In this document: piece by piece, positions 11,531 through 28,699 of the stretch
Numbering within the stretch: the stretch's first letter is position 1
How the letters are laid out: each line of letters opens with the position of its first letter
Origin: Candidatus Woesearchaeota archaeon
Lineage (GTDB): Archaea > Nanobdellota > Nanobdellia > Pacearchaeales > GW2011-AR1
Assembly (NCBI GenBank): GCA_964481185.1
Contig: CAYZSY010000003.1
Location: 1-40,927, forward strand
Reading direction: 5' to 3'
Length of the DNA: 40,927 nt
The notes under the pieces: generated by a model
The model's database searches: none
Told to the model about the DNA's origin: nothing
What the model saw: the letters and a program-made list of their open reading frames with translations, nothing else
Made by a program: the position numbers and the translations under genes

Positions 11531-13027
11531 ATGGGCAGAAAAATAATGTTAATAAACCCCGCTTTATCTGGAAGCTTGAGCTCTGGCATATTTACAGTCA
11601 AGGTCCCCATGGGGTTGGCTTATATAGCGGCTTATCTGGAAAAAGAAGGATACAAACCAGAAATCTTGGATTGTATGGCTTATTATGAAAATATTAAAAA
11701 ACTAGATAGTAATAGGCATAGAATAGGTATCAGCGATGAAGAGATAATAAAAAAAATAAAAGATTTCAATCCAGATGTTGTGGGGGTTGCGTGTGCATAT
11801 ACAATTCATGAGGCCGACGCTATACGAACTGCGGAGATAGTTAAAAGACATAGCAAGGCGCTGGTTGTCTGTGGCGGCGCCCATACTTCTGCCAATCCTT
11901 CATCTGTTCTAAAAAATAAATGCATAGATATAGCTGTAATCGGCGAGGGAGAAATAACTTTTTTGAACATTGTTAAAAATTTAGAAAACAAAAAGGAGTT
12001 ATATTCTTTAAAGGGCATTGCTTTTATGGATAATAAGAACATAAAGATAAATCCCTCTGCAGATTATATTAAGGACTTGGATACCATCCCTTTCCCAGCA
12101 AGGCATCTTTTGCCTATGAAAAATTATCTGACTCATCCCCAAAATTCTATTGCTAATATGAGGGGACCAACTACTGAGATAATCACGAGCAGGGGTTGCC
12201 CATTTCGGTGCATATTTTGCTCAATTTGCACAGTCTGGGGAAGAAAATGGAGGGCAAGAAGCCCAAAAAATGTGGTGGACGAACTGGAATATCTGCACAA
12301 AACTTACGGAGTAAAAGAGTTTAGGTTTTTTGACGATAATCTTAGCTGGGATAAGAAGAGAACTATTGATATATGCGATGAAATCATTAAAAGAAAATTA
12401 GATATAAAATGGGATACTCCTAACGGTGTCGCAATTGCAACACTTGACGAGGAAGTTCTTTCTAAAATGAAGAAATCAGGGTATTATAAAATTGTTATGG
12501 GCATAGAATCTGGAAGTGAAGAAACTTTAAAATTCATGAGAAAACCAGTCTCTTTAAATCAGGCCAGAAAGATAATTAGTATTTGCAATAAACTTGGCAT
12601 ATGGACATGGTCAACTTTTGTTATAGGGTTTCCAGATGAAACTAAGAAGGAAATAGACAAAACTATAGATTTTGCCAAAAAATCTGGATTAAATTTTGCA
12701 ACATTTTATATTGCCCAACCTTATCCTGGGACAGATATGTACAAGGTTTATGAAAAAGAAGGATTATTAAGAGATGGATTTATTGAAGACAGCAGTGTCA
12801 CCAACACCAAATACAACACAAAAAATTTTTCTGCTGAAGAGTTAAATAATTTGCAAAAGAGATTATATTCTGATTTCATAAAAAATAGAATGATTTCCTA
12901 TCTTAATCCGATTGTTTTTTACAGAGAATTTTTTAATAGAATAAGAAGTTTTGAAGACATAAATTATGTAATTAGAATGTTTTTAGCTTTAGTTGGAAAA
13001 GAATACAGTCCAATTTATAAGAAATAG
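11531..13027 (+). CDS. B12-binding-domain radical SAM enzyme (class B radical SAM), paralog 1
   Basis: N-terminal Rossmann-like cobalamin domain (MLINP..., PDVVGVAC, VCGGAHTSANP, VIGEGE), then TSRGCPFRCIFCS (CX3CX2C) and MGIESGS. Confidence 0.85.
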   Translation: MGRKIMLINPALSGSLSSGIFTVKVPMGLAYIAAYLEKEGYKPEILDCMAYYENIKKLDSNRHRIGISDEEIIKKIKDFNPDVVGVACAYTIHEADAIRTAEIVKRHSKALVVCGGAHTSANPSSVLKNKCIDIAVIGEGEITFLNIVKNLENKKELYSLKGIAFMDNKNIKINPSADYIKDLDTIPFPARHLLPMKNYLTHPQNSIANMRGPTTEIITSRGCPFRCIFCSICTVWGRKWRARSPKNVVDELEYLHKTYGVKEFRFFDDNLSWDKKRTIDICDEIIKRKLDIKWDTPNGVAIATLDEEVLSKMKKSGYYKIVMGIESGSEETLKFMRKPVSLNQARKIISICNKLGIWTWSTFVIGFPDETKKEIDKTIDFAKKSGLNFATFYIAQPYPGTDMYKVYEKEGLLRDGFIEDSSVTNTKYNTKNFSAEELNNLQKRLYSDFIKNRMISYLNPIVFYREFFNRIRSFEDINYVIRMFLALVGKEYSPIYKK

Positions 13028-13036
13028 GGAGAGAAG

Positions 13037-13921
13037 CTATTTTGTGCTCTCAACTCTTACCCAGATTTTCTTTAAGTTCTTCCTCATCACATTGATATCC
13101 CAGAAAATAAGGGTCCAAAGATATATTCTTGCAAATATCAATGAAATTGTATAAATAAACTCTTTTATTGTCTTGGGATATGCAAGAACCTTGAATATAC
13201 CCTCACTTTCTTTTGCAAATGAACGCATCCTCTCCTTCTTCTTGACAATATAACCGAGCTGGTTATATCCGCCAGCACTTCTTTTCTTCTGTTTTATCCA
13301 ATCAGAGAATGTTGAGGGATATTTGACATAAACTTCTGCTTCTGGAGCGTACAGAATTTTATAGCCTTTATCATATATCATGTGAGAGATAACAGCATCT
13401 TCAGAGAGGGCCTCATCCGGAATGTTTTTTACGATTCCTCTTCGAATTGCATACAGGTATCCAGAGCAGACAATCATTTTTCCATCTTTTATTCTTTTAT
13501 CCCTTATGTCGTGGGCTATGTCAGTTAAAAGATGGCTCCAAAAGCCCAGCATTTTATTTCTCGGGCTTAAAGAGCGCGGTCTGCCCGTCACTGCTCCAAT
13601 TTTTGGATCTTTAAAAATATTAATTATGTAGGGAATAGCATTTTCAGAGATGTGCACATCAGCATCAGTCATAATAATAATATCGCCTTTGGCTTTCTTA
13701 AAAACTTGATTTAAAGCAGAAGGTTTTCCTCTTCCTTCATCTTTAAGAATCTTGATTTTCTTGTTTCTCTTAAGATAAACTCTTGCAGCATCCAAGGTCT
13801 CTTTGTCAGGAGCAGCAATGATTAATTCGTAACTCCCTTTAATCTTGTTTTTCAAAACTTGCTCTATCGCTTTTCCAATAGTCTTAGATTCTTTATAGCC
13901 GGTTATTACAATTGATATCAT
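13037..13921 (-). CDS. GT2 glycosyltransferase
   Basis: ISIVITGYKES, IIMTDADVHIS (DxD), GAVTGRP, and a C-terminal hydrophobic segment. There is a 4-nt overlap with the upstream GT4 gene. Confidence 0.75.
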   Translation of the reverse strand: MISIVITGYKESKTIGKAIEQVLKNKIKGSYELIIAAPDKETLDAARVYLKRNKKIKILKDEGRGKPSALNQVFKKAKGDIIIMTDADVHISENAIPYIINIFKDPKIGAVTGRPRSLSPRNKMLGFWSHLLTDIAHDIRDKRIKDGKMIVCSGYLYAIRRGIVKNIPDEALSEDAVISHMIYDKGYKILYAPEAEVYVKYPSTFSDWIKQKKRSAGGYNQLGYIVKKKERMRSFAKESEGIFKVLAYPKTIKEFIYTISLIFARIYLWTLIFWDINVMRKNLKKIWVRVESTK

Positions 13922-15036
13922 CTTATTTTGTTAAATAAAGAAATGTAAGATTTAATTAGCTTATCCCATCTATAATTCTTTGCTTCTTTTTCTGCATTTC
14001 TCTGAATAGTTTTATCTCCAGCAAGATTATGTTTTATTAAATCTACAAGTTGGCGATAATCTCCAATATTGAATAAGAGTCCATTCTTTCTGTCAGTTAT
14101 TATCTCCTTTCCCCCATCAGTTTTGCTTGAGATTACAACTTTTCCGCGTGCCATTGCCTCAAGAATGACTTGGGGCATCGCTTCTCTTAAGGAGGGGAGA
14201 ACAAATATTTTATGTTCGTCTATTAGTTTTATCTTTTTCCTCAAGTCATAAACTGGAGGAGATACGCTCACATTCGTAATCTTATTATTAGCAATTATTC
14301 TCTTTAATCTTTCAACATAATTTTTTTCAGAGCTTCCTACAATTGAAAAATTAACTTTTGGCAGAGATTTAGCAGACATAAGGAGAGTCTCTATATTTTT
14401 TACAGGCGCAATTCTTCCAAGGAACAAAACATCTTTTCCTTTTGCTGGGTTTGCTCTTTTCTGCTTAAAGAACTCTTCAGGCAAGCCATTTGGTATATAA
14501 ATTATCTTGTTTTTCTTTACATCAAGTTTCTCAAGGTAAGAAAGTTCCCATTTAGTTATTGCTATTATCTTTGTAAATCTATTCAATTTCGGCTTAACAT
14601 TGAGATGATTAAAAATAGAGGTTGCAAGATTTAGGGGAAATCTTCTATTTACATTAAATGGGGCATGTGTAACAAGATAACAAGGAATATTTGCTCTTCT
14701 GGCAAGTTTTAAGGCTTTGAATGAATGCGGATGAAGGAGATGAGTTATCACAATATCTGGGGAATATTTCTTAAATTCTTTATCAAAATTAAAATAAGTT
14801 ACATTTTTTGATATAAGCTTATCCATAAAATCCACATTTGCTTTAAATCGTCTAATGGATATTCCTTCAATCTCCTCCTCACATATCGCACAATTTTTGC
14901 TTCCCTTCTCTATATCTGATGAAAAAATCGTTACTTCATAACCCAATTTAACAAACTCTTTTGCTTCAGCAAGAACCCTTGTAAAAACTCCATCTATACC
15001 TGCGGAAAATGGGCAAATCTCAACTATTTTCATCAT
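13918..15036 (-). CDS. GT4 (GT-B fold, Glycos_transf_1) glycosyltransferase
   Basis: FVLPSLREAMPQVILEAMARGKVVISS (EX7E-type motif), LFLGRIAPVKN, and an N-terminal GT4-type domain. Confidence 0.8.
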   Translation of the reverse strand: MMKIVEICPFSAGIDGVFTRVLAEAKEFVKLGYEVTIFSSDIEKGSKNCAICEEEIEGISIRRFKANVDFMDKLISKNVTYFNFDKEFKKYSPDIVITHLLHPHSFKALKLARRANIPCYLVTHAPFNVNRRFPLNLATSIFNHLNVKPKLNRFTKIIAITKWELSYLEKLDVKKNKIIYIPNGLPEEFFKQKRANPAKGKDVLFLGRIAPVKNIETLLMSAKSLPKVNFSIVGSSEKNYVERLKRIIANNKITNVSVSPPVYDLRKKIKLIDEHKIFVLPSLREAMPQVILEAMARGKVVISSKTDGGKEIITDRKNGLLFNIGDYRQLVDLIKHNLAGDKTIQRNAEKEAKNYRWDKLIKSYISLFNKIR

Positions 15037-15110
15037 ATAATATCTTTATTGGGGTTAAAAAGCTTTAACATTCTTTATTAATGCGATATATACATTTAAT
15101 GATAGGAATG

Positions 15111-15117
15111 TTTATAA
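15111..15117 (+). promoter_or_regulatory. TATA box (gaatgTTTATAA) for the 15140 operon
   Basis: Starts 29 nt upstream of ATG 15140. It shares the gaatgttta core with the boxes at 28735 and 30532. Confidence 0.45.
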
Positions 15118-15139
15118 CAATATAAATTTAGGGATTTAA

Positions 15140-16138
15140 ATGACAAAAGTGGGACTTATAGGCTGCGGATATTGGGGTAAAAATCATCTCCGAACACTTA
15201 GAGATATTGGTGAGGGTATATTGAAAACAGTATGTGACTTAAACAGACCATCCAATTTTCCAACATCAATAAATTTTACTCAAAACTATAACGATCTATT
15301 AAACGACTCCGAAATCAACGGGGTTATTTTAGCTACCCCTACAGCCACACATTATAGATTGGCTGAGCAATTTTTATTGCATGGAAAGAATGTTTTGGTG
15401 GAGAAACCAATCACTACTAATTCAGCCGAAGCTAAATCTCTTGCAAATTTAGCAGATGAAAGAAGGTTAGTTTTAATGGTTGGAGAAACATTTAGATACA
15501 ACTCAGCAGTAAGGTTTGCCAAAAATATGGTAGACAAAGGAGAAATAGGCGATCTCAGATATATGGAATCAAGAAGGGTTGGCTTGGGCCCGATAAGAGC
15601 AGATGTGAGTGCACTTTGGGATTTAGCAACCCATGATATATATTTAGCAAGTATGTTTGCAAATAAATCACCAGATTGTGTAAGCTATCAGGGTGTTTCT
15701 CACAATGGGCACTTAGACGATATAGTCTCTCTAAATTTAAAATTCACAAATCCAGATGTCCTTGCAACAATTTATGTTAATTGGGAGCATCCAGTAAAGG
15801 AGAGAAAAATAATCGTTGGCGGTAAAAAAAAGTCGATTCTTATAGATGATGTTCAGCCCTCTGAAAAGATAGTAGTATATGAGAGGGGAGTCGATTATCA
15901 ACCAAAAGAGGGGGGATTTGGTGAGTTTATTGGCTCAACAAGGGATGGCGAAATCAGAATACCAAAATTAAAAATAAATCAGCCTCTTGAAGAGGAGTTA
16001 AGGCATTTTATGAGGTGCATTGCTGGAGAAACTAAATGCGAGAGCGATGGTCTGGTAGGTCTTCAAACAGTGTCGGTCTTAGAAGCAGCAGAGAAATCTA
16101 AAGAACTGGATGGTAAAGAGGTAAAGATTCATGAATGA
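15140..16138 (+). CDS. Gfo/Idh/MocA NAD-dependent sugar oxidoreductase (WbpB/WlbA-like UDP-sugar 3-dehydrogenase)
   Basis: VGLIGCGYWGKNH, VLVEKP, and its position ahead of an acetyltransferase and a DegT aminotransferase. Confidence 0.75.
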   Translation: MTKVGLIGCGYWGKNHLRTLRDIGEGILKTVCDLNRPSNFPTSINFTQNYNDLLNDSEINGVILATPTATHYRLAEQFLLHGKNVLVEKPITTNSAEAKSLANLADERRLVLMVGETFRYNSAVRFAKNMVDKGEIGDLRYMESRRVGLGPIRADVSALWDLATHDIYLASMFANKSPDCVSYQGVSHNGHLDDIVSLNLKFTNPDVLATIYVNWEHPVKERKIIVGGKKKSILIDDVQPSEKIVVYERGVDYQPKEGGFGEFIGSTRDGEIRIPKLKINQPLEEELRHFMRCIAGETKCESDGLVGLQTVSVLEAAEKSKELDGKEVKIHE

Positions 16139-16634
16139 GAGAGAATATTTTGTCGCGCTAACCGCCATCATAAGAGATGTAAAAGTTGGAAAGGAATCAA
16201 AAATATGGAATTTTTGCAATATCTATGAATGCGAAATAGGATCAAATACACAAATTGGTTCTTATTCTGAGATAAAAGCGGGCGCAGTAATAGGAGATAA
16301 TTGCAGATTTCAATCTTATATCTTTATTCCAGAAGGAACAAAAATAGGCAATAACGTTTTCTTAGGGCCCAGGGTTACTTTTCTTAATGATATGCACCCC
16401 ACTGCTAAGAAAGCCATTGATAAAAAATGGGATCTTGAAGCATGTGTTATAGAAGACGACGTTTCAATTGGCGGATGTGTTACAATTAACCCAGGAGTAC
16501 GAGTAGGGAGGGGCGCAAGGATAGGGTCTGGGGCGGTTGTCATTAAAGATGTGCCAGAAAATGCAGTAATGGTTGGAAATCCGGCTCGTCAAATAGGATT
16601 AACAACAGATGCAAGATATAAGGATTGGATATAA
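16131..16634 (+). CDS. Left-handed beta-helix (hexapeptide) N-acetyltransferase (WbpD/WlbB-like)
   Basis: Hexapeptide repeats (IGSNTQIGSYSEIKAGAVIGDNCRF..., VSIGGCVTINPGVRVGRGARIGSGAVV) and MVGNPAR. It overlaps the upstream gene by 8 nt. Confidence 0.75.
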   Translation: MNEREYFVALTAIIRDVKVGKESKIWNFCNIYECEIGSNTQIGSYSEIKAGAVIGDNCRFQSYIFIPEGTKIGNNVFLGPRVTFLNDMHPTAKKAIDKKWDLEACVIEDDVSIGGCVTINPGVRVGRGARIGSGAVVIKDVPENAVMVGNPARQIGLTTDARYKDWI

Positions 16635-17774
16635 ATGAAAGTACCATTCGCAGATTTAACAAGAGATGAGAAAGAGACTTTTATAGAAGGAACAAGCTTA
16701 GAACAAAGAATAAAATGGGCAATTTTTAATGTTATAGATAAGAAGGCCTTTATTCTAGGAGAGCACGTTGCGAGTTTTGAAAATTCATTTGCAGAATTTT
16801 GTGGCGTAAAATACTGCATAGGTGTTTCAGATGGTCTTTCTGCTTTAGAGCTCTCATTAATAAGCAAGGGGATTGGTTCGGGAGATGAAGTAATAACTGT
16901 CGCAAATACATTTAATGCCACTGTTGGAGGAATATTGAAGACCGGGGCAAAACCAGTTCTGGTTGATGCATCAAATTCAGATTTTAACATTGATATTAAT
17001 AAGATAAACGAGAAGATAAACAAAAATACAAAGGCAATTATCCCAGTTCATTTATATGGTCAGTCCTCAAATATGAACCCTCTCTGGGAATTGGCAGAAA
17101 GAAATAATCTTTCAATAATAGAAGATGCTTGTCAGGCACATGGAGCAACCTTTGAGGGCAAGCGAGTCGGAAGTTTAGGGAAAGCAGGCTGTTTTTCTTT
17201 TTACCCGGGCAAAAATCTTGGCAGTTATGGGGATGGTGGGGCGGTAGTCACTAATGATAGCGATGTAGCAGATTTTATAAGAAAAACAAGGAATTATGGT
17301 CAATCTAAAAAATATTTCCACGATATAAGGCCGGATAATGCAAGATTAGATGCAATACAGGCAGTAGTTCTATCAGAAAAGTTAAAGGTATTAGACAAAT
17401 GGAATGCTATGCGTTCCGATAATGCCAGAATTTACAGGGATAATTTAAATGAAGTGAACGATATAGAACTGCCCTCTGAAAGAAAATCCGGCGAGCATGT
17501 TTATCATTTGTATGTAATAAAATCCGATAAAAGGGATGAGTTGGAAAAATATCTTGAAAGCAGAGGAATTACAACCGGTCTTCACTATCCAGTCCCAATT
17601 CATTTACAAAAATGTTTTGCTCACATAGGCTATAAAGAAGGAGATTTTCCAGTTTCTGAACATTTATCAAAAAAAGTACTTACACTTCCTATGTTTCCAA
17701 CAATGAGAAAAGAAGAAATAACCTACATAACGGATTCTATAAAAGAATTTCTTACTACTTCACAAGAATCTTGA
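16635..17774 (+). CDS. DegT/DnrJ/EryC1/StrS PLP-dependent sugar aminotransferase (WbpE/WlbC-like)
   Basis: SDGLSALELSL, IIEDACQAHGA, and CFSFYPGKNLGSYGDGGAV with the canonical Schiff-base Lys. It starts immediately after the acetyltransferase stop. Confidence 0.85.
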   Translation: MKVPFADLTRDEKETFIEGTSLEQRIKWAIFNVIDKKAFILGEHVASFENSFAEFCGVKYCIGVSDGLSALELSLISKGIGSGDEVITVANTFNATVGGILKTGAKPVLVDASNSDFNIDINKINEKINKNTKAIIPVHLYGQSSNMNPLWELAERNNLSIIEDACQAHGATFEGKRVGSLGKAGCFSFYPGKNLGSYGDGGAVVTNDSDVADFIRKTRNYGQSKKYFHDIRPDNARLDAIQAVVLSEKLKVLDKWNAMRSDNARIYRDNLNEVNDIELPSERKSGEHVYHLYVIKSDKRDELEKYLESRGITTGLHYPVPIHLQKCFAHIGYKEGDFPVSEHLSKKVLTLPMFPTMRKEEITYITDSIKEFLTTSQES

Positions 17775-18657
17775 CTGACTCGATAAAATAAGCAAAATAG
17801 CGTATTGAATAGTAAATTGGAAGGAAGAAGATAAAAGGAATATAAAAGTCGCTTGTAAGGTGGCGTAGCGTTTTGTACATAGAATACAAGGGAAATAAAG
17901 GCAACACCAAAACTATATTCCATGGTTTTCTCATTGATCTGCCAACCCACTTACTATGGTCCCAAGTGTCTTCAAATGATGCCGGATTAGTATGGCCTAC
18001 TAAAAGGTCAGCACCCATAAACTCCGTTCCTTCTGTTAAATATATTGTTTGATCATCAGCATACCCAAGTTCAGAGTTGAATGGTCTCTTAAGTACATAT
18101 TCTTTATCAATAAGAGAGAATACTTTGCTTAACCCATTTTCATTCAGACTATCTCGTTTATAGAAAAATGCACGAGCCCACCAATTCTTAAGATTATTGC
18201 ATTTCTCTTCTTTGTGAATAATCCCTATACTTTTACCAGTGCGTAATACTTCAATTCCTTTTTTTATATAATCTTTACTATACACAAGATCAGCACCACA
18301 AATCATAACAATTTGCCCTTTTGCCTTTCGAACTCCAAAGTTCCAAGCATTTCCCGGTCCCTTTTGTACTCTTGGAATAGAAAAAGCACGAACCTGTGCA
18401 TATTGTTTTGCAAACTCTTGTGCAATCTCTAGTGTTCTGTCTTTGGAATTTCCGTTTTCCACAACGAGAATCTCAAGTTTTTTATATTGTTGTGCCAAAA
18501 GTGAATTTATACATATTGCAATGTGAGATTCTTCGTTATGAGCGGCAATTACTGCTGAAACGAGCGGACTACCCTTAAACCTTTTTCCCTTTAGTAACGA
18601 CATAGAGTCTTTATTAGAGATATTTTTAAATATCTTTCTATGCAATCTTAGATACAT
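17755..18657 (-). CDS. GT2 glycosyltransferase
   Basis: LVSAVIAAHNEESHI, VVENGNSKDRT, ICGADLVY (DxD-like). The true start is probably Met19 at 18603 (MSLLKGK...), because a TATA-like box lies about 27 nt upstream of it. Its 3' end overlaps the convergent aminotransferase gene by 20 nt. Confidence 0.75.
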   Translation of the reverse strand: MYLRLHRKIFKNISNKDSMSLLKGKRFKGSPLVSAVIAAHNEESHIAICINSLLAQQYKKLEILVVENGNSKDRTLEIAQEFAKQYAQVRAFSIPRVQKGPGNAWNFGVRKAKGQIVMICGADLVYSKDYIKKGIEVLRTGKSIGIIHKEEKCNNLKNWWARAFFYKRDSLNENGLSKVFSLIDKEYVLKRPFNSELGYADDQTIYLTEGTEFMGADLLVGHTNPASFEDTWDHSKWVGRSMRKPWNIVLVLPLFPLYSMYKTLRHLTSDFYIPFIFFLPIYYSIRYFAYFIESVKILVK

Positions 18658-18662
18658 AAATG

Positions 18663-18691: not shown

Positions 18692-20128
18692 ATGAAAATT
18701 GCGCTGATTAACATGGAAGAAGATTACGGCTGTTTACCTATAGGGATTGCCTATCTTGCCAGTTACGCCAGAAAGTATGGCGGTTTTTCAGATATTCGTA
18801 TTATTGATCGTGAAAATCGTCTGGAAGCCATTAAAAAATATAAACCCGATTTAATTGGTATAAGTTCAGTTAGTGAGCAATATTTTCGCGCCAATAAACT
18901 CGCAGGAGAAATTAAAAAAATAACAAAAGTGCCCTTAATTATCGGCGGAGTTCATATTTCTGCAGTTCCCGAACAATTGCTAAATTCTAATTTTGATTTT
19001 GGGGTTATAGGTGAAGGGGAAATTACATTTTTAGAATTATTACAACTTTATCAAGGAGAAAGAAAGTTTTCGCCTTTAGCTTTGCGCAATATTAAAGGAG
19101 TTGTATTTCGTAATGATAAGGGGAATCTTGAGGTAACTCCTAGACGAGAATTACTTAGTAATCTTGACAGCGTACCTTTTCCAGCGCTTGATTTACTAAA
19201 AATGAAAGAGCAATATCTTGTGCCCGGTTCTGCTGGAGCTCATCTTATTTGTGTTAGGGGGTATTTAATGACTTCTCGTGGATGCCCTTATAATTGTGTT
19301 TACTGCGGTTCAAATACTACATGGGGTGGCAGGGGCGTGCGCTGGCATTCAGCAGAGCGCGTTGTAGAAGACATTGAACGTTGGGTGCATTATGGTGCAA
19401 ATCATTTTGTGGTATATGACGATCTTATGGTGGTTAATCGGGAGCGACTTAAAAAGATAATTGACATGCTGGAAAAAAAGAGATTATTGGAAAAGATTGA
19501 TTTTGAGCTTTATGGAAGAGCGAACATTACTGATGAGGAATTATGTAAACTTTTAAAACGTATGAGAGTAACTTCTATTGCCTTCGGACTAGAATCTGGA
19601 AGCGATCGTATGCTTCGATATCTTAAAGTTAACAGTGTAAATGTGCAGCAAGGCAAAAATGCGGTGGCTCTCTGTCAAAAATACGGGATTAAAGTTGCTG
19701 GATTATTTATCATAGGAAGTCCTGGTGAAACCGAAGAGGATCTTCAGCAAACACTGTCCTTTGTGCGTAATCCAAATTTAAATACAGTACAAGTATATCA
19801 GGCAACGCCCCTGCCTGGAACCGAACTTTGGCGTCGTGCTATTCGCGATAATATTATTACTAAAGATTTCTATGAACATGATAATCGGGGAAAGGTGCTT
19901 GAGCTTAATCCGGAAGCCATTCTAACAAAAGAGATGCCCAAAAATAAGTTCGTAGAATGGCATTTGCTCTTTAAACGCGAAATGAATCATAAAAATTACG
20001 AATCTGATAAATTGCAGTTTAACAAAGAATCGCTACGCTTTTTCTTATCTCCCAGATTTTATCTCAAATTATGGAAACGAAAAAGATATTTACCAAGATA
20101 TATAAGACAAGTCATGCGCATAAAATAG
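18692..20128 (+). CDS. B12-binding-domain radical SAM enzyme (class B), paralog 2
   Basis: PDLIGISS, IIGGVHISAVP, VIGEGE, TSRGCPYNCVYCGS (CX3CX2C), FGLESGS. Its Arg codons are mostly CGT/CGC, unlike neighbouring genes. Confidence 0.85.
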   Translation: MKIALINMEEDYGCLPIGIAYLASYARKYGGFSDIRIIDRENRLEAIKKYKPDLIGISSVSEQYFRANKLAGEIKKITKVPLIIGGVHISAVPEQLLNSNFDFGVIGEGEITFLELLQLYQGERKFSPLALRNIKGVVFRNDKGNLEVTPRRELLSNLDSVPFPALDLLKMKEQYLVPGSAGAHLICVRGYLMTSRGCPYNCVYCGSNTTWGGRGVRWHSAERVVEDIERWVHYGANHFVVYDDLMVVNRERLKKIIDMLEKKRLLEKIDFELYGRANITDEELCKLLKRMRVTSIAFGLESGSDRMLRYLKVNSVNVQQGKNAVALCQKYGIKVAGLFIIGSPGETEEDLQQTLSFVRNPNLNTVQVYQATPLPGTELWRRAIRDNIITKDFYEHDNRGKVLELNPEAILTKEMPKNKFVEWHLLFKREMNHKNYESDKLQFNKESLRFFLSPRFYLKLWKRKRYLPRYIRQVMRIK

Positions 20129-20213: not shown

Positions 20214-21617
20214 ATGAATCATAAAAGGAAAATTTTTTTATTTGAGACTTCTGTCGAAGACCAAAATAGGGAGCGTGGAGAGATACGAGAAGGAAATAAT
20301 ACGCCTTTTCCCATAGGCATCCTTTATTTAGATACTATTCTTAGAAACTATGGGTATAATGTACTGACAAAAGATTATACTGCTTGGAGTGAGAAACATT
20401 GTCTAAAAGAAATCGAGGTACAAATTAAAAAATTTAAACCTGATATTGTCGGGATAACTGTGATGTCAATGACAAGAGCATCATCATATAAAGCAATGCG
20501 TCTTATAAAAAGATTGAGCCCTCAGATAAAGATAATTCTCGGAGGAATACATGCAAGTGTTATGTATAGTCAGCTATTAAAAAATTTTCCTGTGGAAGCA
20601 ATCTGCATCGGCGAAGCAGATAAGAATATAATTCCTCTAATTAACTCACTTTCAAAAGGAAAGTCCCTAAAGGCAATTCGAGGGATAGCATATAAAGATA
20701 AAAATGGGCAGATTGTAAGAACGGCGCTACAAGATCTTGGCAGAGACATTGATGATTTGCCATATCCTAATTACAATGCATATATGAATCCAAACATAAA
20801 GAGGGTTTATATGATAAGTTCGCGAGGGTGCCCTAATCGATGTTCATTTTGTTGCCTGCATCTTACTAGTAGGCAAATATGGAGGCAAAGAAGTTATGTA
20901 AAAGTGGTAGAAGAAATTGAATATATTACTAAGAAATATCCCTGGGTTGAGGAGATTCAATTTATGGACGATACGATGACATTAGATAATGCGCGCATTA
21001 TTAATTTATGTAAGGAGATAGTAAAAAGAGGAATTCATCTGCGATTTTATTGTGCTGGAAGAGTTAAACCTGTTTCGAGAGAGATGTTTTATTGGATGGA
21101 AAGAGCGGGATTTAAAGAGATTCAGTTTGGTATTGAAACAGGCAGCGATAAGATAATGAAATCAATTAATAAGGGAATTACGAAGCAAGATTGTATTATT
21201 GCATTTAAATTGCTCCGGGAGTTTCCAAAAATTAAGGCAGTTAAGTTTATTATTGTGGGTTTACCTGGGGAAACTGAAGGAACAGTAGAAGAGACTATTA
21301 ATTTTATTAAACAACTCCAAAAATTAAAAAGAATGGACTTTTTTTATGCAGCGCCTCTTTGGATATATCCAGGTACAGACGTATATCAAATAGCAATGGC
21401 GAAAGGGCTTATTAATGATTCATACTGGCTTAGCGATAAGCCTTGTCCCCTTTATACGCTTGAGCATTCCGAACAATGGCTTATGAAGATGTCTAACAAA
21501 ATTGCAATTAAAACGATGCTGGCGCAGGGAAAAATTTACTTTTTAAAACGACTCATTGAGAAAATAAAACAAAACCCCCAATACTACATGGAACGATTTT
21601 TGCGCTTAAGAAAGTAA
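20214..21617 (+). CDS. B12-binding-domain radical SAM enzyme (class B), paralog 3
   Basis: PDIVGITV, ILGGIHASVMY, CIGEAD, SSRGCPNRCSFCC (CX3CX2C), FGIETGS. Confidence 0.85.
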   Translation: MNHKRKIFLFETSVEDQNRERGEIREGNNTPFPIGILYLDTILRNYGYNVLTKDYTAWSEKHCLKEIEVQIKKFKPDIVGITVMSMTRASSYKAMRLIKRLSPQIKIILGGIHASVMYSQLLKNFPVEAICIGEADKNIIPLINSLSKGKSLKAIRGIAYKDKNGQIVRTALQDLGRDIDDLPYPNYNAYMNPNIKRVYMISSRGCPNRCSFCCLHLTSRQIWRQRSYVKVVEEIEYITKKYPWVEEIQFMDDTMTLDNARIINLCKEIVKRGIHLRFYCAGRVKPVSREMFYWMERAGFKEIQFGIETGSDKIMKSINKGITKQDCIIAFKLLREFPKIKAVKFIIVGLPGETEGTVEETINFIKQLQKLKRMDFFYAAPLWIYPGTDVYQIAMAKGLINDSYWLSDKPCPLYTLEHSEQWLMKMSNKIAIKTMLAQGKIYFLKRLIEKIKQNPQYYMERFLRLRK

Positions 21618-21642
21618 TTCTTAATAAATTCTCTGCTTTAGG

Positions 21643-22800
21643 TTATTTAAGCGCAGCATCAAATATTTCTTTAAGCCGTTTATTTCGTTTTTCCAAAGAA
21701 AACTTTGTATTTGAAATTTTTAGACTTTCTGCGCCCATTTTTTCTCTAAGATTCTTATTTTCTATTAAGCGTGCAGCTCTATTATATAATCTATTAACCA
21801 CAATAGGATCTATAACTTTAAGATGATTAATAAATTTCTTGGATCGTACACCTAGATAAGGAGTTTCTACCGGAGGATAGGGTATTTTTTCTGAGGGTTT
21901 TACTAAGAAACCATTTTTTCCGTCGATAATAAATTCAGAAACTCCATGCCGATCAAGTGCAATAATGGGCAATCCAAATGACATCGCCTCAAGTGTGGCC
22001 ATGAGAAAATAAAAATGGCCCGGGAAGAAAAAGATATCTGCATCTCGATATAATTGTTGTATCCTCGCCATGGGCAGAGTTTCTTCCAAATACTCAATGT
22101 TGTTAAGAAGGTATCTCTCTTTTATGTTCTGAGGAACCTTTGCTCTCATAACTAATTTAATATTATCATATCTTTTACTCAGTTTTTTGAACGTTTCCAA
22201 GACCTCCAACCCTCCCTTGCTATAAAAATCATCGGGATTATTAATGGAACCCATAAATAGGAAAATAATGCTTTTACTATTCTTTCTTTTTTCTATAATC
22301 TTGCTGGGAGGTATTGCAGGTGGAAGAAGCTCAATCTTTTTCAGAATCTCCTTAGAAAAGAAATTTTCAAATTCGCGTCTTACAATTGAAGTGTGAATAA
22401 TTATCTTCTTACACCATCGAGAAGCAAGTATTTTATTTATTTTTCTCAGGTTTTTTCTAAATAACTTAAGGTCATATCCAGCGAATGAAGTGGGCGTATC
22501 TAAAATTTCTACAATCCAAGGTTTTTCCTCTTGAACAAGTTGGCCATGAGAAAAGATTAAATCGGCGTCTTTTGGAGATTTTTCATAAAAAATATTATTT
22601 ATCAGATTAAAAGAGTTAAACGCTTTTTGATATACTTCTTTATAAAGATAAAGAATTAATTTATTCTTCTTAAGTTTTGATATTATATTTGATTTCTTTT
22701 CATTTTGAACTACAATGAATTTATATCCCTTAGGAGGATTCTCAACCAATTTTTTCACATACGTATGCAAACCAACTCCGAAACAATATACTTTCTTCAT
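21643..22800 (-). CDS. GT4 (GT-B fold) glycosyltransferase
   Basis: FFFPGHFYFLMATLEAMSFGLPIIALDRHGVSEFIIDGKNGFLV (EX7E-type region). There is a 4-nt overlap with the upstream fcl-like gene. Confidence 0.75.
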   Translation of the reverse strand: MKKVYCFGVGLHTYVKKLVENPPKGYKFIVVQNEKKSNIISKLKKNKLILYLYKEVYQKAFNSFNLINNIFYEKSPKDADLIFSHGQLVQEEKPWIVEILDTPTSFAGYDLKLFRKNLRKINKILASRWCKKIIIHTSIVRREFENFFSKEILKKIELLPPAIPPSKIIEKRKNSKSIIFLFMGSINNPDDFYSKGGLEVLETFKKLSKRYDNIKLVMRAKVPQNIKERYLLNNIEYLEETLPMARIQQLYRDADIFFFPGHFYFLMATLEAMSFGLPIIALDRHGVSEFIIDGKNGFLVKPSEKIPYPPVETPYLGVRSKKFINHLKVIDPIVVNRLYNRAARLIENKNLREKMGAESLKISNTKFSLEKRNKRLKEIFDAALK

Positions 22801-23735: not shown

Positions 23736-23849
23736 TTTTGCACGCTTTTCTTGAATTTTCTTGGTTGTTCATCAATAAAATACTTCTCTTTGCATATTAT
23801 TAATGTTTCTTCTCTTAATTTTTCCATTGAACAAAAGCTTACAATAATC

Positions 23850-23857
23850 TTTATAAA
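23850..23857 (+). promoter_or_regulatory. TATA box TTTATAAA for gmd
   Basis: Starts 32 nt upstream of ATG 23882, in the 146-nt divergent spacer. Confidence 0.4.
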
Positions 23858-23881
23858 TGCATCTTCTGAGATGATTGTAAG

Positions 23882-24973
23882 ATGGCTCAAAAAGTAGCGC
23901 TAATAACAGGAATAGGCGGTCAAGATGGATCTTATTTGGCAGAATTTCTTTTGGAGAAAGGATACAAAGTAAGAGGCATAATTAGAAGGGCAAGTCTTCC
24001 AAATACAAAAAGAATAGAGCATCTTGTAATGAAATACGGCACTTCAGATGATAAAAACTCTTCATTTTTAGTTAAATACGCAGACCTCACAGATACTTCT
24101 TCAATAAAGGCAATTATTGAGGATTTTCAACCGGATGAAATTTATCATATTGGTGCACAAAGCCACGTCGGTATAAGCTTTAATAATGCAGAATCAACAA
24201 TTAATATAAACACTCTTGGCACACTAAGAATTCTAGAGACTCTCAGACAAATGAAATCAAAATGCAAATTTTATCAGGCCTCTTCTTCAGAAATGTTTGG
24301 AATCTCTCCTCCTCCGCAGAATGAATCTACACCAATGATTCCTCAAAGCCCCTATGGAATATCAAAGCTCGCAGCATACCATTTAACAAGATTGTATAGA
24401 AATGCATACGGGCTTTTTGCTTCTAATGGAATTCTCTTCAATCACGAGTCTCCAAGAAGAGGATATAATTTTGTTACGAGAAAGATAACAAAAGAGCTTG
24501 CAAAGATTGTTGTTGGTGAAAGTGATAAAATTGTCTTGGGCAACCTTGATGCGAAAAGAGACTGGGGTTTCTCAAAAGAATATATTGAAGCAATGTGGGC
24601 AATCCTCCAGCAGCCAACGCCTGATGATTTTGTAATTGCAACAGAAGAAACGCATACAATAGAGGACTTTGTAAAAGAAGCTTTCTCTCTGGTTGGTCTG
24701 AATTATGAGAACCATTTAATAACAAGCAATCAGTTTAAGAGGCCAGCAGAAGTGCCTGCTCTTTTAGGAGATTCCTCAAAAGCAAAAAGAATTTTGGGTT
24801 GGAATCCAAAAGTAAAATTCAAGGAGATTGCATTTATGATGGTTGAATCTGATCTTAAAGAAAAGTTGGAGGAATCTGGATTAATTCCCATAGAGCCAAA
24901 TGTTGTAAGACCAGAAGGATATTATATAGAAAAGGCGAAGGAAATTCTTGCGAAAAGAAAGCAGAACCTTTAA
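23882..24973 (+). CDS. gmd: GDP-mannose 4,6-dehydratase
   Basis: KVALITGIGGQDGSYLAEFLLEKGYKV.GI.RRAS is near-identical in pattern to E. coli Gmd. Also ASSSEMFG, SPYGISKLAAY, NGILFNHESPRRG, FVTRKIT, LGNLDAKRDWGFSKEY, DDFVIAT, RPAEV..LLGDSSKA. Confidence 0.92.
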   Translation: MAQKVALITGIGGQDGSYLAEFLLEKGYKVRGIIRRASLPNTKRIEHLVMKYGTSDDKNSSFLVKYADLTDTSSIKAIIEDFQPDEIYHIGAQSHVGISFNNAESTININTLGTLRILETLRQMKSKCKFYQASSSEMFGISPPPQNESTPMIPQSPYGISKLAAYHLTRLYRNAYGLFASNGILFNHESPRRGYNFVTRKITKELAKIVVGESDKIVLGNLDAKRDWGFSKEYIEAMWAILQQPTPDDFVIATEETHTIEDFVKEAFSLVGLNYENHLITSNQFKRPAEVPALLGDSSKAKRILGWNPKVKFKEIAFMMVESDLKEKLEESGLIPIEPNVVRPEGYYIEKAKEILAKRKQNL

Positions 24974-24975
24974 AT

Positions 24976-25431
24976 TTATTTTGTTTCTTGGATTATTGAA
25001 GGGCTTACTCTGATCGTGTCAGATTCGTAATCTTTCCCTCCGCGTAGTCCACTAGTAAAAGTTATGAATACAGTTTCAGGTTCAAGAATCTTTAGAGCAT
25101 GGATTTCATTAGGGGGCGTCGATATAATCTCCCAATTTTTTTGTAATTCGCATTTTGCCGGCTCATTAGAATTTAATGGTTTATACCAATATTCCATTGA
25201 ACCATTTATCATGAGCATGTGCTGTGTTGATTTTACATGATAATGATTTCCTCTTAGTGCTCCCTTATTTGAGCGAATCATATTTACATGATTTATATTG
25301 GTATTATAGAATATATCAACAATATCTCCCCTGTCATCTGTATGTAGCTCCAATTGCAGACCTTCATTTCTCCAAGCATTTGGCCCTACTTGCTTCCAAT
25401 CTGCATTGCTCCAGATATTTCTTTTTTGCAT
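24976..25431 (-). CDS. WxcM/FdtA/QdtA-type cupin, NDP-4-keto-6-deoxyhexose ketoisomerase/epimerase-like
   Basis: 151 aa. DDRGDIVDIF...NMIRSNKGALRGNHYHVKSTQHMLMINGS matches the D.RG...RG.HAH pattern of FdtA-like cupins. It is the last gene of a minus-strand operon. Confidence 0.6.
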   Translation of the reverse strand: MQKRNIWSNADWKQVGPNAWRNEGLQLELHTDDRGDIVDIFYNTNINHVNMIRSNKGALRGNHYHVKSTQHMLMINGSMEYWYKPLNSNEPAKCELQKNWEIISTPPNEIHALKILEPETVFITFTSGLRGGKDYESDTIRVSPSIIQETK

Positions 25432-25460
25432 ATAGATTTGTTAAACCGCAGGTTTATAAA

Positions 25461-26681
25461 TTATTCTGGAACAATAAATTTTATATTTGGATTTATTTTT
25501 GCCAAACCATCTTTTATCTGATTAGCTATGTTCCAAGAAAGTATCAAGGCACAGACCTCCCCGTTATATTTTGCAAAGATCTCATCTCCAACTATTGGGA
25601 TTCTACTCAACGGAGTATATTTTCCTTGTTTATGGGGAGAAGAGTCTGTAACATAATCTAAAATAGTATTTGTCAGATTGTAAAAGTTAAGGAAAGTATT
25701 TCCCTTTGCAGCAGCTCCAACCGCAACTATCGGAATATTCCTTCTCCTAATTTCATAGACTTTTTGGAGAAAGTTATTTCTTTGTTTTATTATATCTTCC
25801 ATAAATCTTTTGTAGCCATTTAAATCAAATAGCCCTTCTGAGAATTCTTTGTTGATGGTTTCCTCAAGCTGGCTGCATTCCGCACTCTCTACTCTATCTT
25901 CATGTTTTGCATAAACTCTCAATGAGCCGCCATGATAATCAACAACATCCAAATCTCTTATTCCCATCCCAGCTATCTCCAATATCTTTTTTGATGATCT
26001 TGCTGTGAAATAACTGACATGCTCATGATATATCTGATCAAATTTGCCTGTTTTGAATCCGATATACCAATATGGGAGCTCGTAAACAAAAGTTCCATCA
26101 TCAGAAAGCAGTTTTTTTACAGCTTTTGCAAAATCAAGGGGGCTGTTTGAGTGATTGAAAACGTTATTTGCGATAATAATGTCTGCTTTTCCATGTTTTT
26201 TCAATATTTCATCAGCAATTTTGGAATCAAAGAGACCAACTACAGTATCAACATTCCTATTTTTTGCAAGTCTCGCCATATAGTCAGAAGGATCAACGCC
26301 TAGAACCCTGTTTCCATTGCTTGCAAACTGTTCTGTTAAGAACCCGTCATTTGAACCTACTTCAACAATGAATGAATCTTTCTTTAAGCCTATCTTATCA
26401 GATACTTCTCTGGCGAAGTTTATCCAATGTGTTCTTGAAAAGTTAGAATTGGAGGAAGTATAAGAATAATCTACCTGACAATATCTGTCCATTGGATTTG
26501 TTTCGCATCTAAGCTGTATTTGGCCGCATTCTTGACAAAGGTCGCATATCAAAGGATATGCTTTATCTGCCTCAGAAATGCGGTCTTTAGGTACGAATGT
26601 GTCTGCAAACGGGTGCATTCCCAAATTTATTATCTCATTAAGGTTTATTGAACCGCAGATCAAGCACTTTGTTCTAAACAT
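25461..26681 (-). CDS. NDP-hexose C-methyltransferase (TylC3/EvaC-type class I SAM methyltransferase with N-terminal Zn-ribbon and C-methyltransferase C-terminal domain)
   Basis: CLICGS...YPLICDLCQECGQIQL (two Cys pairs), VEVGSNDG (SAM motif I), YHEHVSYF and HGGSLRVYA. I recognise this architecture from sugar C3/C5 C-methyltransferases. Confidence 0.8.
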   Translation of the reverse strand: MFRTKCLICGSINLNEIINLGMHPFADTFVPKDRISEADKAYPLICDLCQECGQIQLRCETNPMDRYCQVDYSYTSSNSNFSRTHWINFAREVSDKIGLKKDSFIVEVGSNDGFLTEQFASNGNRVLGVDPSDYMARLAKNRNVDTVVGLFDSKIADEILKKHGKADIIIANNVFNHSNSPLDFAKAVKKLLSDDGTFVYELPYWYIGFKTGKFDQIYHEHVSYFTARSSKKILEIAGMGIRDLDVVDYHGGSLRVYAKHEDRVESAECSQLEETINKEFSEGLFDLNGYKRFMEDIIKQRNNFLQKVYEIRRRNIPIVAVGAAAKGNTFLNFYNLTNTILDYVTDSSPHKQGKYTPLSRIPIVGDEIFAKYNGEVCALILSWNIANQIKDGLAKINPNIKFIVPE

Positions 26682-26696
26682 AGAAATTGCTTTTCT

Positions 26697-27107
26697 TCAA
26701 GCTATATAAGTTTTGTCCTTCTCTCCCCCCAAATATGGACCATTCTTAATCTCGTATAATTTTGTTCCACTAACAAGAGATTTGAATAAATGCCCGCCAG
26801 CATAGCAAACACAACAATCTCCCATTTTCAACTCAACTTTCTTAATTTCCAAGTCATTTAAATCATAAAAAGTCGCTTCCAGCTTGCCCTCAACCACTAT
26901 GACTGCTTCTTGAGTTGTATCAGTCTCTCTTATATTTTTAAGATGTTTGTGGGCTGGAACAGAATCTCCTTCCTTGAATTCAATAAAAGAAACCTGAAGT
27001 GCATCTTCCTGAGAGCCGAAATCTTCTCTTCTTTTATCAATATCTTCTTTTCTGCATATTACATCAAGCAGAACATCTTTTTTGATAGAAGAATATATTC
27101 TTTCCAT
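26697..27107 (-). CDS. Small cupin-fold protein (WbuC-like or sugar epimerase/isomerase candidate)
   Basis: 136 aa. VPAHKH...QEAVIVVEGKLEATFYD...GGHLF is a cupin two-motif pattern. It sits inside the sugar-tailoring operon. Confidence 0.4.
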   Translation of the reverse strand: MERIYSSIKKDVLLDVICRKEDIDKRREDFGSQEDALQVSFIEFKEGDSVPAHKHLKNIRETDTTQEAVIVVEGKLEATFYDLNDLEIKKVELKMGDCCVCYAGGHLFKSLVSGTKLYEIKNGPYLGGEKDKTYIA

Positions 27108-27178
27108 GATTTAGAGCAGAAGAGTTTATATAAATACTTTTCCGGCACTCATCCAGTTAGCAAACAATACACGCAACC

Positions 27179-28699
27179 TCACTTTGCCTGCAAATTATAT
27201 AATACCCGCCTGATTGTACTTATAACTCCTTCGCGTCTTAAGAATCTTAAGATTTTTTCATATTTTTCTTTTTTGTTTTGCATATTCATAATAAATCCGC
27301 GGGGAAGCCAATAGAAAAAGTCGTATAAAATGTTGTATTTAATTGCACCTTGAAATGCCCGCCCAATATTTCTTAGATTACATGGATAAGTCGGTGTTCT
27401 GAATATGCACCTATAATACGCTTTTAATCTCTCTTCTTTAGGAAAATCAGGACTCTCAGCACAGGGCTCATCATAGGTAAAACTTTCTGTAATTCTACTA
27501 TCATAATTAAGAGTGTTACCGACAACCCCATTTTGTTTAAACCACCTCCCAACTTCAGTATCTTCGTATGGAAGTACTAGGTTCCATCCACAGTAATCCG
27601 CTCTGGTTTCATTTGCAAATTTTATACACGCTTTTACTCTTTCGTAATTATCTTCTGGCAAACCAATAATAAAAGAAAGGCCCAATTTTAATCCATATTT
27701 TTTTACTAATCTGGCAGCTTCTTTTATCTTTTCTAGAGACTCTCCTTTATTTACCAGTTTATATACCTCGGGATGTGCATGTTCTACACCTAACCAAACT
27801 TCAGGACAACCGCATTCTTTCAAGAGGGCCAATAAGTGGTCGTTAATACAATCTGCCCTTGTATTAACAATTCTTAAATCTAGCTTTATCTTTTTTCTGT
27901 ATAATTCTAAAAATTGAATAAACCTGTCAATATTCGTAGTCGGACAGTCATCGCACACAACAACTCGGATATTACTAGACAGACTTTTTTTTGCATTCTC
28001 CAACTCTTCAATGCAATTCTGAGGCGTTCGCCACCGCCACTTTCTATTTGAGACTGAAAAAACAGTGCAGAAACTGCATTTAAATGGGCAGCCTCGAGAA
28101 GTCATAATTGGATAGTTTCTTATATACTCTGATTTGTAAAATGATTTAAAATCTGGAAATGGAACATCATCTAAATTTACAAATTCACGCGATTGAATCC
28201 GTTCAGCCTTTTTAAGTTTTTTTGCTTTCTCAACTAAGTCTATTATAACGAGCTCTGCTTCGCCAACAGCAACATAATCTACTTTTTCATTTTCTAACAA
28301 CTGCTTTGGATATAAAGTTGCACATGGTCCGCCTACCAAGATTATTAAGTTCTTGTTAAATCGATTAACTTCAGAAATTGTTTTGCTAACTTCAGAGAAA
28401 TTTATACTATATGAACTTATTCCGACTATATCCGGCTTAAAATTTCTCAGGAAAAAAGAGACTGGGATATCCCCATGAAGTAAAACATAATCTACTACTA
28501 ACACCTCATGACCCCTCTCTCTTAGAATAGTCGATAGTATTGCCAATCCATTGTGTGGAATTGAAAACTCTACATTCTTCCTTTTTGGATTAATCAATAG
28601 AACTCTTTTTTTAAGAGATTCTGGAACAATTTTAATGGCCTTTAATTCTTGAGATTTCATGTTTTTAGTTGTTTTGAGAGATTTATAAATCTTAATCAT
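27179..28699 (-). CDS. B12-binding-domain radical SAM enzyme (class B), paralog 4
   Basis: LLINP, PDIVGISS, LVGGPCATLYP, AVGEAE, TSRGCPFKCSFCT (CX3CX2C). The likely true start is Met14 at 28660 (MKSQELK...), because a TTTATAAA box lies inside the first 13 codons, exactly 29 nt upstream of that ATG. Confidence 0.85.
   Translation of the reverse strand: MIKIYKSLKTTKNMKSQELKAIKIVPESLKKRVLLINPKRKNVEFSIPHNGLAILSTILRERGHEVLVVDYVLLHGDIPVSFFLRNFKPDIVGISSYSINFSEVSKTISEVNRFNKNLIILVGGPCATLYPKQLLENEKVDYVAVGEAELVIIDLVEKAKKLKKAERIQSREFVNLDDVPFPDFKSFYKSEYIRNYPIMTSRGCPFKCSFCTVFSVSNRKWRWRTPQNCIEELENAKKSLSSNIRVVVCDDCPTTNIDRFIQFLELYRKKIKLDLRIVNTRADCINDHLLALLKECGCPEVWLGVEHAHPEVYKLVNKGESLEKIKEAARLVKKYGLKLGLSFIIGLPEDNYERVKACIKFANETRADYCGWNLVLPYEDTEVGRWFKQNGVVGNTLNYDSRITESFTYDEPCAESPDFPKEERLKAYYRCIFRTPTYPCNLRNIGRAFQGAIKYNILYDFFYWLPRGFIMNMQNKKEKYEKILRFLRREGVISTIRRVLYNLQAK

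Follow-up and report, generated by a model that had tools for sequence, protein, structure and literature searches.

Among the class B radical S-adenosylmethionine (SAM) enzymes, C-methylases form by far the largest group, which includes the sugar-acting GenK, GenD1 and MoeK5, and GenK, GenD1/GntE and MoeK5 modify sugar carbons after glycosyl transfer (PMC12931638). These enzymes belong to actinomycete secondary metabolism, where their genes cluster with those of glycosyltransferases (GTs) and class-I methyltransferases. A related setting is that of HpnJ (with HpnI/HpnK) and of Cds: the proposal there is that a family 2 GT (GT2) places a lipid-linked hexose, which a B12-domain radical SAM protein then remodels. 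In addition, the ArnC-ArnD-ArnT, DprE1/E2-Emb/Aft and AglD-AglR-AglS pathways share one logic, combining a GT2 that resembles polyprenyl-phosphate-sugar synthases with a tailoring enzyme in the cytoplasm, a flippase and a GT-C. To our knowledge, no radical SAM tailoring enzyme takes part in the lipid-linked monosaccharide pathways of the ArnT/Emb/AglS type, and we know of no radical SAM step in characterized archaeal N-glycosylation or in prokaryotic surface-glycan assembly generally. Here, we analyze four genes for B12-domain radical SAM proteins (R1-R4) in a glycosylation locus of Candidatus Woesearchaeota archaeon (assembly GCA_964481185.1, contig CAYZSY010000003.1, positions 1 to 40,927; hereafter the window, 40.9 kb with a G+C content of about 34%). 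The locus follows the logic of the lipid-linked pathways, and it differs from those of the ArnD and DprE types in that its tailoring enzyme would be a radical SAM protein.

The four open reading frames (ORFs) were found where the sequence-only reading of the window had placed them (Table 1). In each of them, a PF02310 domain (E-values from 4e-20 to 5e-17) precedes a PF04055 domain (2e-23 to 9e-22), both above the Pfam gathering scores. Therefore, the predicted class-B-type architecture is confirmed at the sequence level, cofactor use aside. R1-R4 are not a new enzyme class, and their function is predicted. Their alignment displays an intact CxxxCxxC within an invariant SRGCP..C..C, and the CxxxCxxC was present in all 352 full-length homologs. 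The other motifs that had been listed for these proteins require some correction: P[DE]..G[IV] and GG.H.S (GGPCAT in R4) aligned as described, whereas GEGE/GEAE fails for R3, which has GEAD, and [GL]E[ST]GS, claimed for all four, is carried by R1-R3 (as G[IL]E[ST]GS) and replaced in R4 by GVEHAH, the signature of the R4 family. The pairwise identities between R1, R2, R3 and R4 are of 25-32%, which indicates four old families, that is, ancient paralogs and neither recent duplicates nor a local amplification. No further radical SAM gene was found in the Pfam/NCBIfam annotation of the other ORFs of the window. A crude hydropathy scan detected no transmembrane segment in R1-R4, against at least ten in the neighboring PMT_2 protein; this absence of hydrophobic segments suggests that the four proteins are soluble and, from there, probably cytoplasmic. 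Likened by description to GenK, GenD1/GntE and MoeK5, they share the two-domain architecture but are shorter (~470-506 amino acids) and are encoded in a DPANN AglB surface-glycan locus.

The Pfam and NCBIfam annotations agree with the earlier interpretation of the surroundings as an archaeal glycosylation locus, with AglB/STT3, an AglH-like PF00953 transferase, a flippase, many GT2 and GT4 genes and genes for nucleoside diphosphate (NDP)-sugar synthesis. The combination of STT3/AglB, the PF00953 initiating transferase and the flippase (760-5446) identifies it as an AglB-dependent N-glycosylation locus. Each radical SAM gene stands beside a transferase gene, in the orientations already noted from the sequence: R1 is divergent from the GT-C and convergent with the GT2 at 13037-13921, R2 is divergent from the GT2 at 17755-18657, R3 faces the GT4 at 21643-22800 in convergent orientation, and R4 adjoins the CgeB-like gene. 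Nevertheless, R4 does not head its operon, as had been supposed, since the CgeB-like gene lies upstream and heads the minus-strand run.

The linkage of R1 was followed in 80 loci that an R1-family alignment retrieved from GTDB, plus three protein look-ups. R1 is the core member of the four, with orthologs (49-78% identity) widespread in DPANN metagenome-assembled genomes (MAGs). The closest homologs of the R1 of the window (64-78% identity), as well as those of R2 and R4, come from MAGs named Nano-/Pace-/Woesearchaeota or Nanoarchaeia; this places the window in a DPANN archaeon, with which the presence of AglB agrees. The same gene order (AglB > AglH-like > flippase > GT2 ... PMT2 < R1 > GT2 < GT4 <) is repeated in DPANN, the R1 module being found in loci L001, L003, L004, L008-L019, L023, L029 and L043, and the PMT2(GT-C)-R1-GT2-GT4 module is present in at least 12 DPANN genomes. 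The DPANN loci also contain orthologs of the PMT2 of the window. Orthologs of the GT2 at 13037 (35-59% identity) are located near R1 orthologs in L001-L004, and orthologs of the GT4 at 13918 (44-46% identity) in L001, L003 and L004. Considering all fetched loci, 17 of the 19 PMT2-like ORFs directly abut a gene for a B12-domain radical SAM protein (B12-rSAM). R1 relatives are also found in clusters of Omnitrophota and Verrucomicrobia. The share of GTs among the ORFs around R1 homologs declines with the distance from R1, from 45% above 60% identity to 38% at 48-60%, 12% at 40-48% (bacterial homologs from Verrucomicrobia, Omnitrophota, candidate phyla radiation (CPR), Anaerolineae and others), 7% at 33-40% and 3% below 33% identity, the latter serving as internal control; this gradient is somewhat exaggerated, as bacterial GTs were detected only with the archaeal queries of the window.

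The three other families show comparable associations, so that the linkage to GTs, whose absence in relatives would have spoken against a glycan role, was recovered for all four of them. R2 orthologs share 61-72% identity with R2, and relatives are found in Aenigmatarchaeota and Verstraetearchaeota. A 491-kb contig is collinear with the window (PMT2 <, methyltransferase >, R1 >, GT2 <, GT4 <, GFO >, hexapeptide >, DegT >, GT2 <, R2 >, GT4 <), an R2 ortholog is located between GFO/hexapeptide and DegT in L091, and the Verstraetearchaeota locus L093 presents the order DegT < GT2 < R2-like >. The divergent GT2-rSAM arrangement seen at R2 is repeated in the collinear contig, in L093 and in L088. 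R3 is missing from this otherwise collinear contig, where the GT4 is convergent with R2, a 55% identical R3 homolog fills the slot of R2 in L088, and a 63% identical ortholog is found elsewhere in L001; R3 therefore acts like a cassette that can be exchanged. A single-sequence metagenome scan with R3 retrieved three loci only. Concerning R4, a 63% identical ortholog adjoins a 48% identical ortholog of the CgeB-like gene in L006, the order R4-like > GT4 > CgeB-like (a 555-aa Glyco_trans_1_2 protein) is found in L094, and homologs of 40-42% identity are located inside GT4/flippase/GT2/PMT_2 clusters of the isolate Methanobacterium sp. SMA-27 (JQLY01000001, 1.72-1.75 Mb) and of one further genome, on a 2.9-Mb contig (L007). 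Clustering at 40% identity divided the 60 full-length B12-rSAM ORFs of the window and 27 archaeal loci into 18 clusters. By these comparisons, each family is old and separate and appears to travel with its own partner: R1 with a GT-C, a GT2 and a GT4, R2 with a GT2 and the acetamido-sugar module, and R4 with the CgeB-like transferase.

Among the neighbors that have no counterpart in the window, a small class-I SAM methyltransferase (Methyltransf_11) is the most frequent: 39 of the 92 loci contain 63 such ORFs, and 29 of these ORFs lie immediately next to a B12-rSAM. It is fused C-terminally to R1 orthologs of ~705 aa (P0025, P0029, P0034 and P0036) and is a separate gene in the PMT2-R1 module elsewhere, for example in L001 (7578-8111). 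A search of the window for this R1-associated methyltransferase yielded no copy.

We propose that R1-R4 are soluble cytoplasmic tailoring enzymes for the surface glycans of the AglB-centered locus, most probably C-methylases, a reading to which we give a probability of roughly 0.55. A glycan-related role, taken alone, is very likely, while the odds for C-methylation as the chemistry are a little short of even. C-methylation is the likeliest single chemistry because C-methylases are the largest functional class and because the nearest curated family of R1, Sden_1168, is counted among the methyltransferases (PMC12931638). In the proposed mechanism, the partner transferase would first attach a sugar to the dolichyl-phosphate carrier or to the growing lipid-linked glycan. 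SAM would then be reductively cleaved at the [4Fe-4S] cluster of the CxxxCxxC motif, and the resulting 5'-deoxyadenosyl radical would take a hydrogen from an unactivated sugar carbon. As the likeliest outcome, methylcobalamin would donate its methyl to this carbon, giving a C-methyl (branched) sugar, and in many relatives the adjacent or fused class-I SAM methyltransferase may then add another methyl. In the case of R1, the GT-C partner would use the modified dolichyl-phosphate sugar outside the membrane once it has been flipped, while R2-R4 would act on sugars that their GT2, GT4 or CgeB-like partners have added, or on the matching NDP-sugars. GT-C enzymes use polyprenyl-phosphate sugars as donors outside the membrane, and all characterized sugar-acting enzymes of this architecture that we know of (GenK, GenD1, MoeK5, HpnJ and AprD4) work after glycosyl transfer; therefore, the most plausible substrate of R1 is a dolichyl-phosphate-linked sugar, modified in the cytoplasm before it is flipped.

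The comparison with curated families places the four proteins apart from all of them. R1-R4 reached no NCBIfam cutoff, including those of HpnJ, BchE, Sden_1168, PhpK, MgmA, the ladderane family and AprD4. The best match of R1 is Sden_1168 (NF038361; 281 bits, E 2e-83, residues 22-446; cutoff 575), and its score with PhpK (TIGR04479) is 137 bits for a cutoff of 600, R2-R4 scoring lower with both models. Sden_1168 and PhpK are methylcobalamin-dependent methyltransferases; however, P-methyltransferase activity was rejected for R1-R4, as there is no phosphoenolpyruvate mutase or phosphonate gene in the window and the Sden_1168 score is half the cutoff. HpnJ (TIGR03471) gives 211, 141, 168 and 99 bits for R1, R2, R3 and R4, respectively (equivalog cutoff 577.6), ranking first in NCBIfam for R2 and R3 and second for R1. 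The best matches of R4 are BchE (116 bits) and the ladderane-type lipid rSAM (112 bits). In the same order of proteins, BchE (TIGR02026) reaches about 202, 120, 151 and 116 bits (cutoff 481), the glutamine C-methyltransferase MgmA/MJ_0865 (TIGR04014) 132, 133, 87 and 90 bits (cutoff 360), the ladderane-type family (TIGR04072) 151, 119, 145 and 112 bits (cutoff 360), and AprD4 (NF033070) 102, 72, 77 and 44 bits over the radical SAM core only (cutoff 500). With scores this far under the cutoffs, the proteins fall inside no curated functional family; membership in a functionally defined clade unrelated to glycans is what the sequence-only reading had named as contrary to its proposal. The resemblance of the R1-GT2(13037) pair to HpnI/HpnJ is only a loose analogy: the setting of R1-R3 resembles that of HpnJ, but the HpnI model scores 26 bits on this GT2, which is more PgaC-like, and the window presents no hopanoid context (shc, hpnH, hpnI or hpnK) and no genes for glycerol dialkyl glycerol tetraethers.

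Sequence matches in the PDB comprise AprD4 (6fd2), MgmA (9ccb), OxsB, TokK, TsrM and CysS, with AprD4, whose substrate is a sugar (paromamine), on top for R1. The AlphaFold (AF2) model of R1, with a predicted local distance difference test (pLDDT) score of 89.7, also has AprD4 as its top structural match with Foldseek. It matches AprD4, OxsB, MgmA, TsrM, TokK and CysS about equally (E-values from 1e-18 to 1e-24, TM-scores of about 0.62-0.75), so that the fold confirms the class without deciding on the cofactor or the chemistry. Regarding the cofactor, the N-terminal domain can be aligned in sequence with proteins that do bind cobalamin (TokK, TsrM, OxsB, MgmA, CysS and 4Q37), and the sequence similarity to AprD4, which binds no cobalamin, is confined to the radical SAM core and excludes the N-terminal domain. 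Both AprD4 and ArsL have Rossmann-like domains and bind no cobalamin (PMC12931638); a PF02310-type domain is therefore no proof of cobalamin binding. A true cobalamin dependence of R1-R4 is rather probable.

Several observations weigh against the proposed C-methylation of surface glycans, in addition to the exaggeration of the GT gradient and to the rank of HpnJ as best NCBIfam match of R2 and R3. The families of R1-R4 meet no curated cutoff, and their function is predicted from sequence and neighborhood. The top structural match of R1 is a cobalamin-free sugar diol dehydratase, and non-methylating class B members are indistinguishable from methylases by sequence or structure (PMC12931638). 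The locus also has a conventional sugar C-methyltransferase, non-radical and flanked by cupins, which suggests that the classical route already provides it with a C-branched deoxysugar. Finally, Woesearchaeota rarely encode complete cobalamin synthesis (PMC8421398), so that the cofactor would have to be scavenged.

Some of these points lead to a possible alternative, which we hold only tentatively, in which R1-R4 have the same glycan-tailoring role with a non-methylating chemistry: a ring contraction as in HpnJ or the calditol synthase, a 1,2-diol dehydration as in AprD4 (possibly cobalamin-free), an epimerization or an oxidation. Indeed, a contraction of lipid-linked hexoses is proposed for HpnJ and Cds (PMC13459092), and both HpnJ and the sugar-acting AprD4 rank high among the matches described above. 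The neighboring or fused class-I methyltransferase would moreover be redundant if the radical SAM protein only methylates, and would fit the O-methylation of a newly created group, and a paralog stands beside a short SDR gene in L003, L004, L016 and L017, as AprD4 does with AprD3. Against this, the HpnJ and AprD4 scores are far under their cutoffs, the AprD4 alignment leaves out the N-terminal domain, there is no hopanoid or calditol context, and methylases dominate class B. In addition, deoxysugar pathways normally pair C-methylases with O/N-methylases as well.

A lipid target, with R1-R4 methylating or cyclizing the dolichol carrier, membrane lipids or glycolipids as do GrsA/B, HpnP/HpnR and the ladderane enzymes, is improbable. 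The ladderane family is among the better NCBIfam matches (112-151 bits), several class B enzymes modify lipids (PMC13459092), and a UbiA prenyltransferase gene lies beside the Aenigmatarchaeota cluster L092. Nevertheless, the ladderane scores are under the cutoff, R1-R4 have no membrane segments, and the presence of several divergent paralogs with different GT and sugar-nucleotide partners and with cassette exchange fits a diversity of sugars better than one carrier lipid. Moreover, DPANN archaea generally lack lipid synthesis.

A non-glycan role, in which tetrapyrrole cyclases, maturases for RiPPs (peptides made by the ribosome and modified after translation) or cofactor enzymes would lie in the locus by chance, has in its favor the source names of many homologs ("anaerobic Mg-protoporphyrin IX monomethyl ester cyclase" or "YgiQ") and the arrays of distant homologs (<33% identity) containing only rSAMs and no GTs, as in L075, but it is very unlikely and is largely refuted by the neighborhood data, considering that GT linkage is kept across phyla and declines with the distance from R1, that BchE identity was rejected (about 115-202 bits against a cutoff of 481, and no chlorophyll genes in the window), that the "BchE" and "YgiQ" names are over-annotations given that R1-R4 reach no curated cutoff, and that the Pfam/NCBIfam annotation of the window contains no tetrapyrrole or precursor-peptide genes.

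The superfamily to which R1-R4 belong is known. In the open-access literature, we came upon no archaeal Agl pathway with a class B radical SAM step, in line with the sequence-only reading, nor a previous description of B12/radical SAM proteins in connection with DPANN or AglB, with N-glycosylation or with polysaccharide. Their systematic embedding, as modules, in surface-glycan loci of the AglB type and of other types therefore appears to be undescribed, especially the pairing with GT-Cs and the methyltransferase fusion. On a broader scale, there are at least 18 subfamilies of B12-type rSAMs in the archaeal loci alone, and it could be speculated, with some doubt, that DPANN, Methanobacterium, Verstraetearchaeota, Omnitrophota, Verrucomicrobia and some CPR have, in parallel, a diversified toolkit of such enzymes that make C-branched, deoxy or carbocyclic sugars on dolichyl- or polyprenyl-phosphate for GT-Cs, forming a hitherto unnoticed layer that would diversify the surface glycans of streamlined microbes dependent on hosts and would itself depend on cobalamin scavenging. 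DPANN surfaces mediate the attachment to the host. If the tailoring of surface glycans by R1-R4 is correct, DPANN and other uncultivated anaerobes would bear C-methyl, deoxy or carbocyclic sugars that current glycan models do not foresee, several large orphan class B groups routinely mis-annotated as "BchE" would gain a function, and genome-reduced symbionts would retain a need for scavenged cobalamin. The question can be addressed in cultured carriers: the R4 family is present in Methanobacterium sp. SMA-27, and Desulfosarcina cetonica JCM 12296 has an R1-like family.

Table 1. Genes of the glycosylation locus in the window, with positions in nucleotides (SDR, short-chain dehydrogenase/reductase; TM, transmembrane).
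Feature	Position	Strand	Length, matches and context
R1, B12-domain radical SAM enzyme	11531-13027	+	498 aa; PF02310 E 4e-20, PF04055 E 6e-23
R2, B12-domain radical SAM enzyme	18692-20128	+	478 aa; PF02310 E 5e-17, PF04055 E 6e-23
R3, B12-domain radical SAM enzyme	20214-21617	+	467 aa; PF02310 E 2e-17, PF04055 E 9e-22
R4, B12-domain radical SAM enzyme	27179-28699	-	506 aa; PF02310 E 1e-17, PF04055 E 2e-23
AglB/STT3, split	387-785 and 760-3150	+	PF02516/PF21436
AglH-like PF00953 transferase, then flippase (PF01943)	up to 5446	+	Pfam
GT2, polyprenyl-phosphate-sugar synthase-like	5471-6187	+	similarity to PpgS/ArnC/AglJ
Nucleotidyltransferase, 4,6-dehydratase-like SDR, two more GT2s	6221-9823
PMT_2/ArnT-like GT-C	9842-11485	-	547 aa, at least 10 TM segments; PF13231 E 3e-13; divergent from R1
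GT2, PgaC/ceramide-GlcT-like	13037-13921	-	294 aa; PF13641, PF00535, PF13506; PgaC_IcaA 94 bits
GT4, Agl16-like	13918-15036	-	372 aa; PF00534, PF13439; Agl16 96 bits
GFO/IDH/MocA oxidoreductase, hexapeptide acetyltransferase, DegT aminotransferase	15140-17774	+	WbpB/D/E-like acetamido-sugar module (Pfam)
GT2	17755-18657	-	300 aa; PF00535 E 4e-28; divergent from R2
GT4	21643-22800	-	385 aa; PF00534, PF13692; convergent with R3
GDP-mannose dehydratase and epimerase	between the GT4 at 21643-22800 and the minus-strand run of R4
WbuC-like cupin, conventional NDP-sugar C-methyltransferase (Methyltransf_13/14), FdtA-like cupin	24976-27107	-	downstream of R4
CgeB-like transferase (Glyco_trans_1_2)	28807-30450	-	547 aa; PF13524 E 8e-24; upstream of R4, same strand
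Other SDR enzymes, HAD phosphatase, nucleotidyltransferase-GHMP-kinase fusion	past the CgeB-like gene

Concerning the other genes of the window, the aglB gene shows a change of frame near 760-785: the ORF at 387-785 (frame 3) corresponds to residues ~19-132 of homologs of 920-934 aa, and the ORF at 760-3150 (frame 1) matches the remainder of the full-length AglB homologs. This interruption makes the integrity of aglB uncertain: either the frameshift was introduced by assembly or sequencing, or the oligosaccharyltransferase gene is pseudogenized. The WbuC-like cupin scores 38.4 bits with TIGR04366 (cupin_WbuC), slightly under the cutoff of 42. The nucleotidyltransferase-GHMP-kinase fusion is a 673-aa protein (35737-37758) that joins a nucleotidyltransferase, a CBS domain and a GHMP kinase, equivalent to a sugar-1-kinase/nucleotidyltransferase in one protein, and it is 61% identical to the product of a gene near the R4 ortholog in L006 (3845-5875). 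In two of the compared loci, split transketolase/E1-like thiamine-diphosphate genes accompany the R4-CgeB-like pair (L006 14091-15310 and L094 12171-13935), which hints at two-carbon branched sugars of a yersiniose-type chemistry; such genes are not present in the window.

Other recurrent radical SAM genes were observed in the compared loci. Genes of the rSAM-SPASM type (~340-370 aa) account for 19 ORFs in 14 related DPANN loci (L001, L003, L004, L006, L092 and others), where they often adjoin a GT2 or a B12-rSAM, and none is found in the window. In an Omnitrophota MAG (L049, 6987-21344), nine B12-rSAM genes stand in a row beside two GT2 genes, with a methyltransferase between the eighth and the ninth, and tandem arrays are also found in L075 (six genes) and L056 (five genes), the array of L075 being one that may represent a RiPP-type cluster. 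In the Aenigmatarchaeota locus L092 (9715-12321), genes for a UbiA prenyltransferase, a DUF362 protein and an FAD oxidoreductase are located by a PMT_2 GT-C amid four B12-rSAMs, an arrangement reminiscent of the decaprenyl-phosphate-ribose/arabinose donor pathway. Two entries, L016 (DAOTCN010000002.1) and P0058 (on L004), are labeled "Candidatus Paceibacterota bacterium" (CPR), with STT3/AglB present and a gene order collinear with the Pacearchaeota locus L003/L017; this CPR label is probably a taxonomic mislabel or the result of mis-binning.

At the edge of the glycan locus (39808-40740), a gene for an MjaI-type restriction endonuclease (PF09568, E 4e-67) is convergent with a short 119-aa ORF. 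The match of this ORF to the N6_N4 DNA methylase domain is confined to the C-terminal end of the domain, the methylase being possibly truncated, and the two genes together form a restriction-modification pair.

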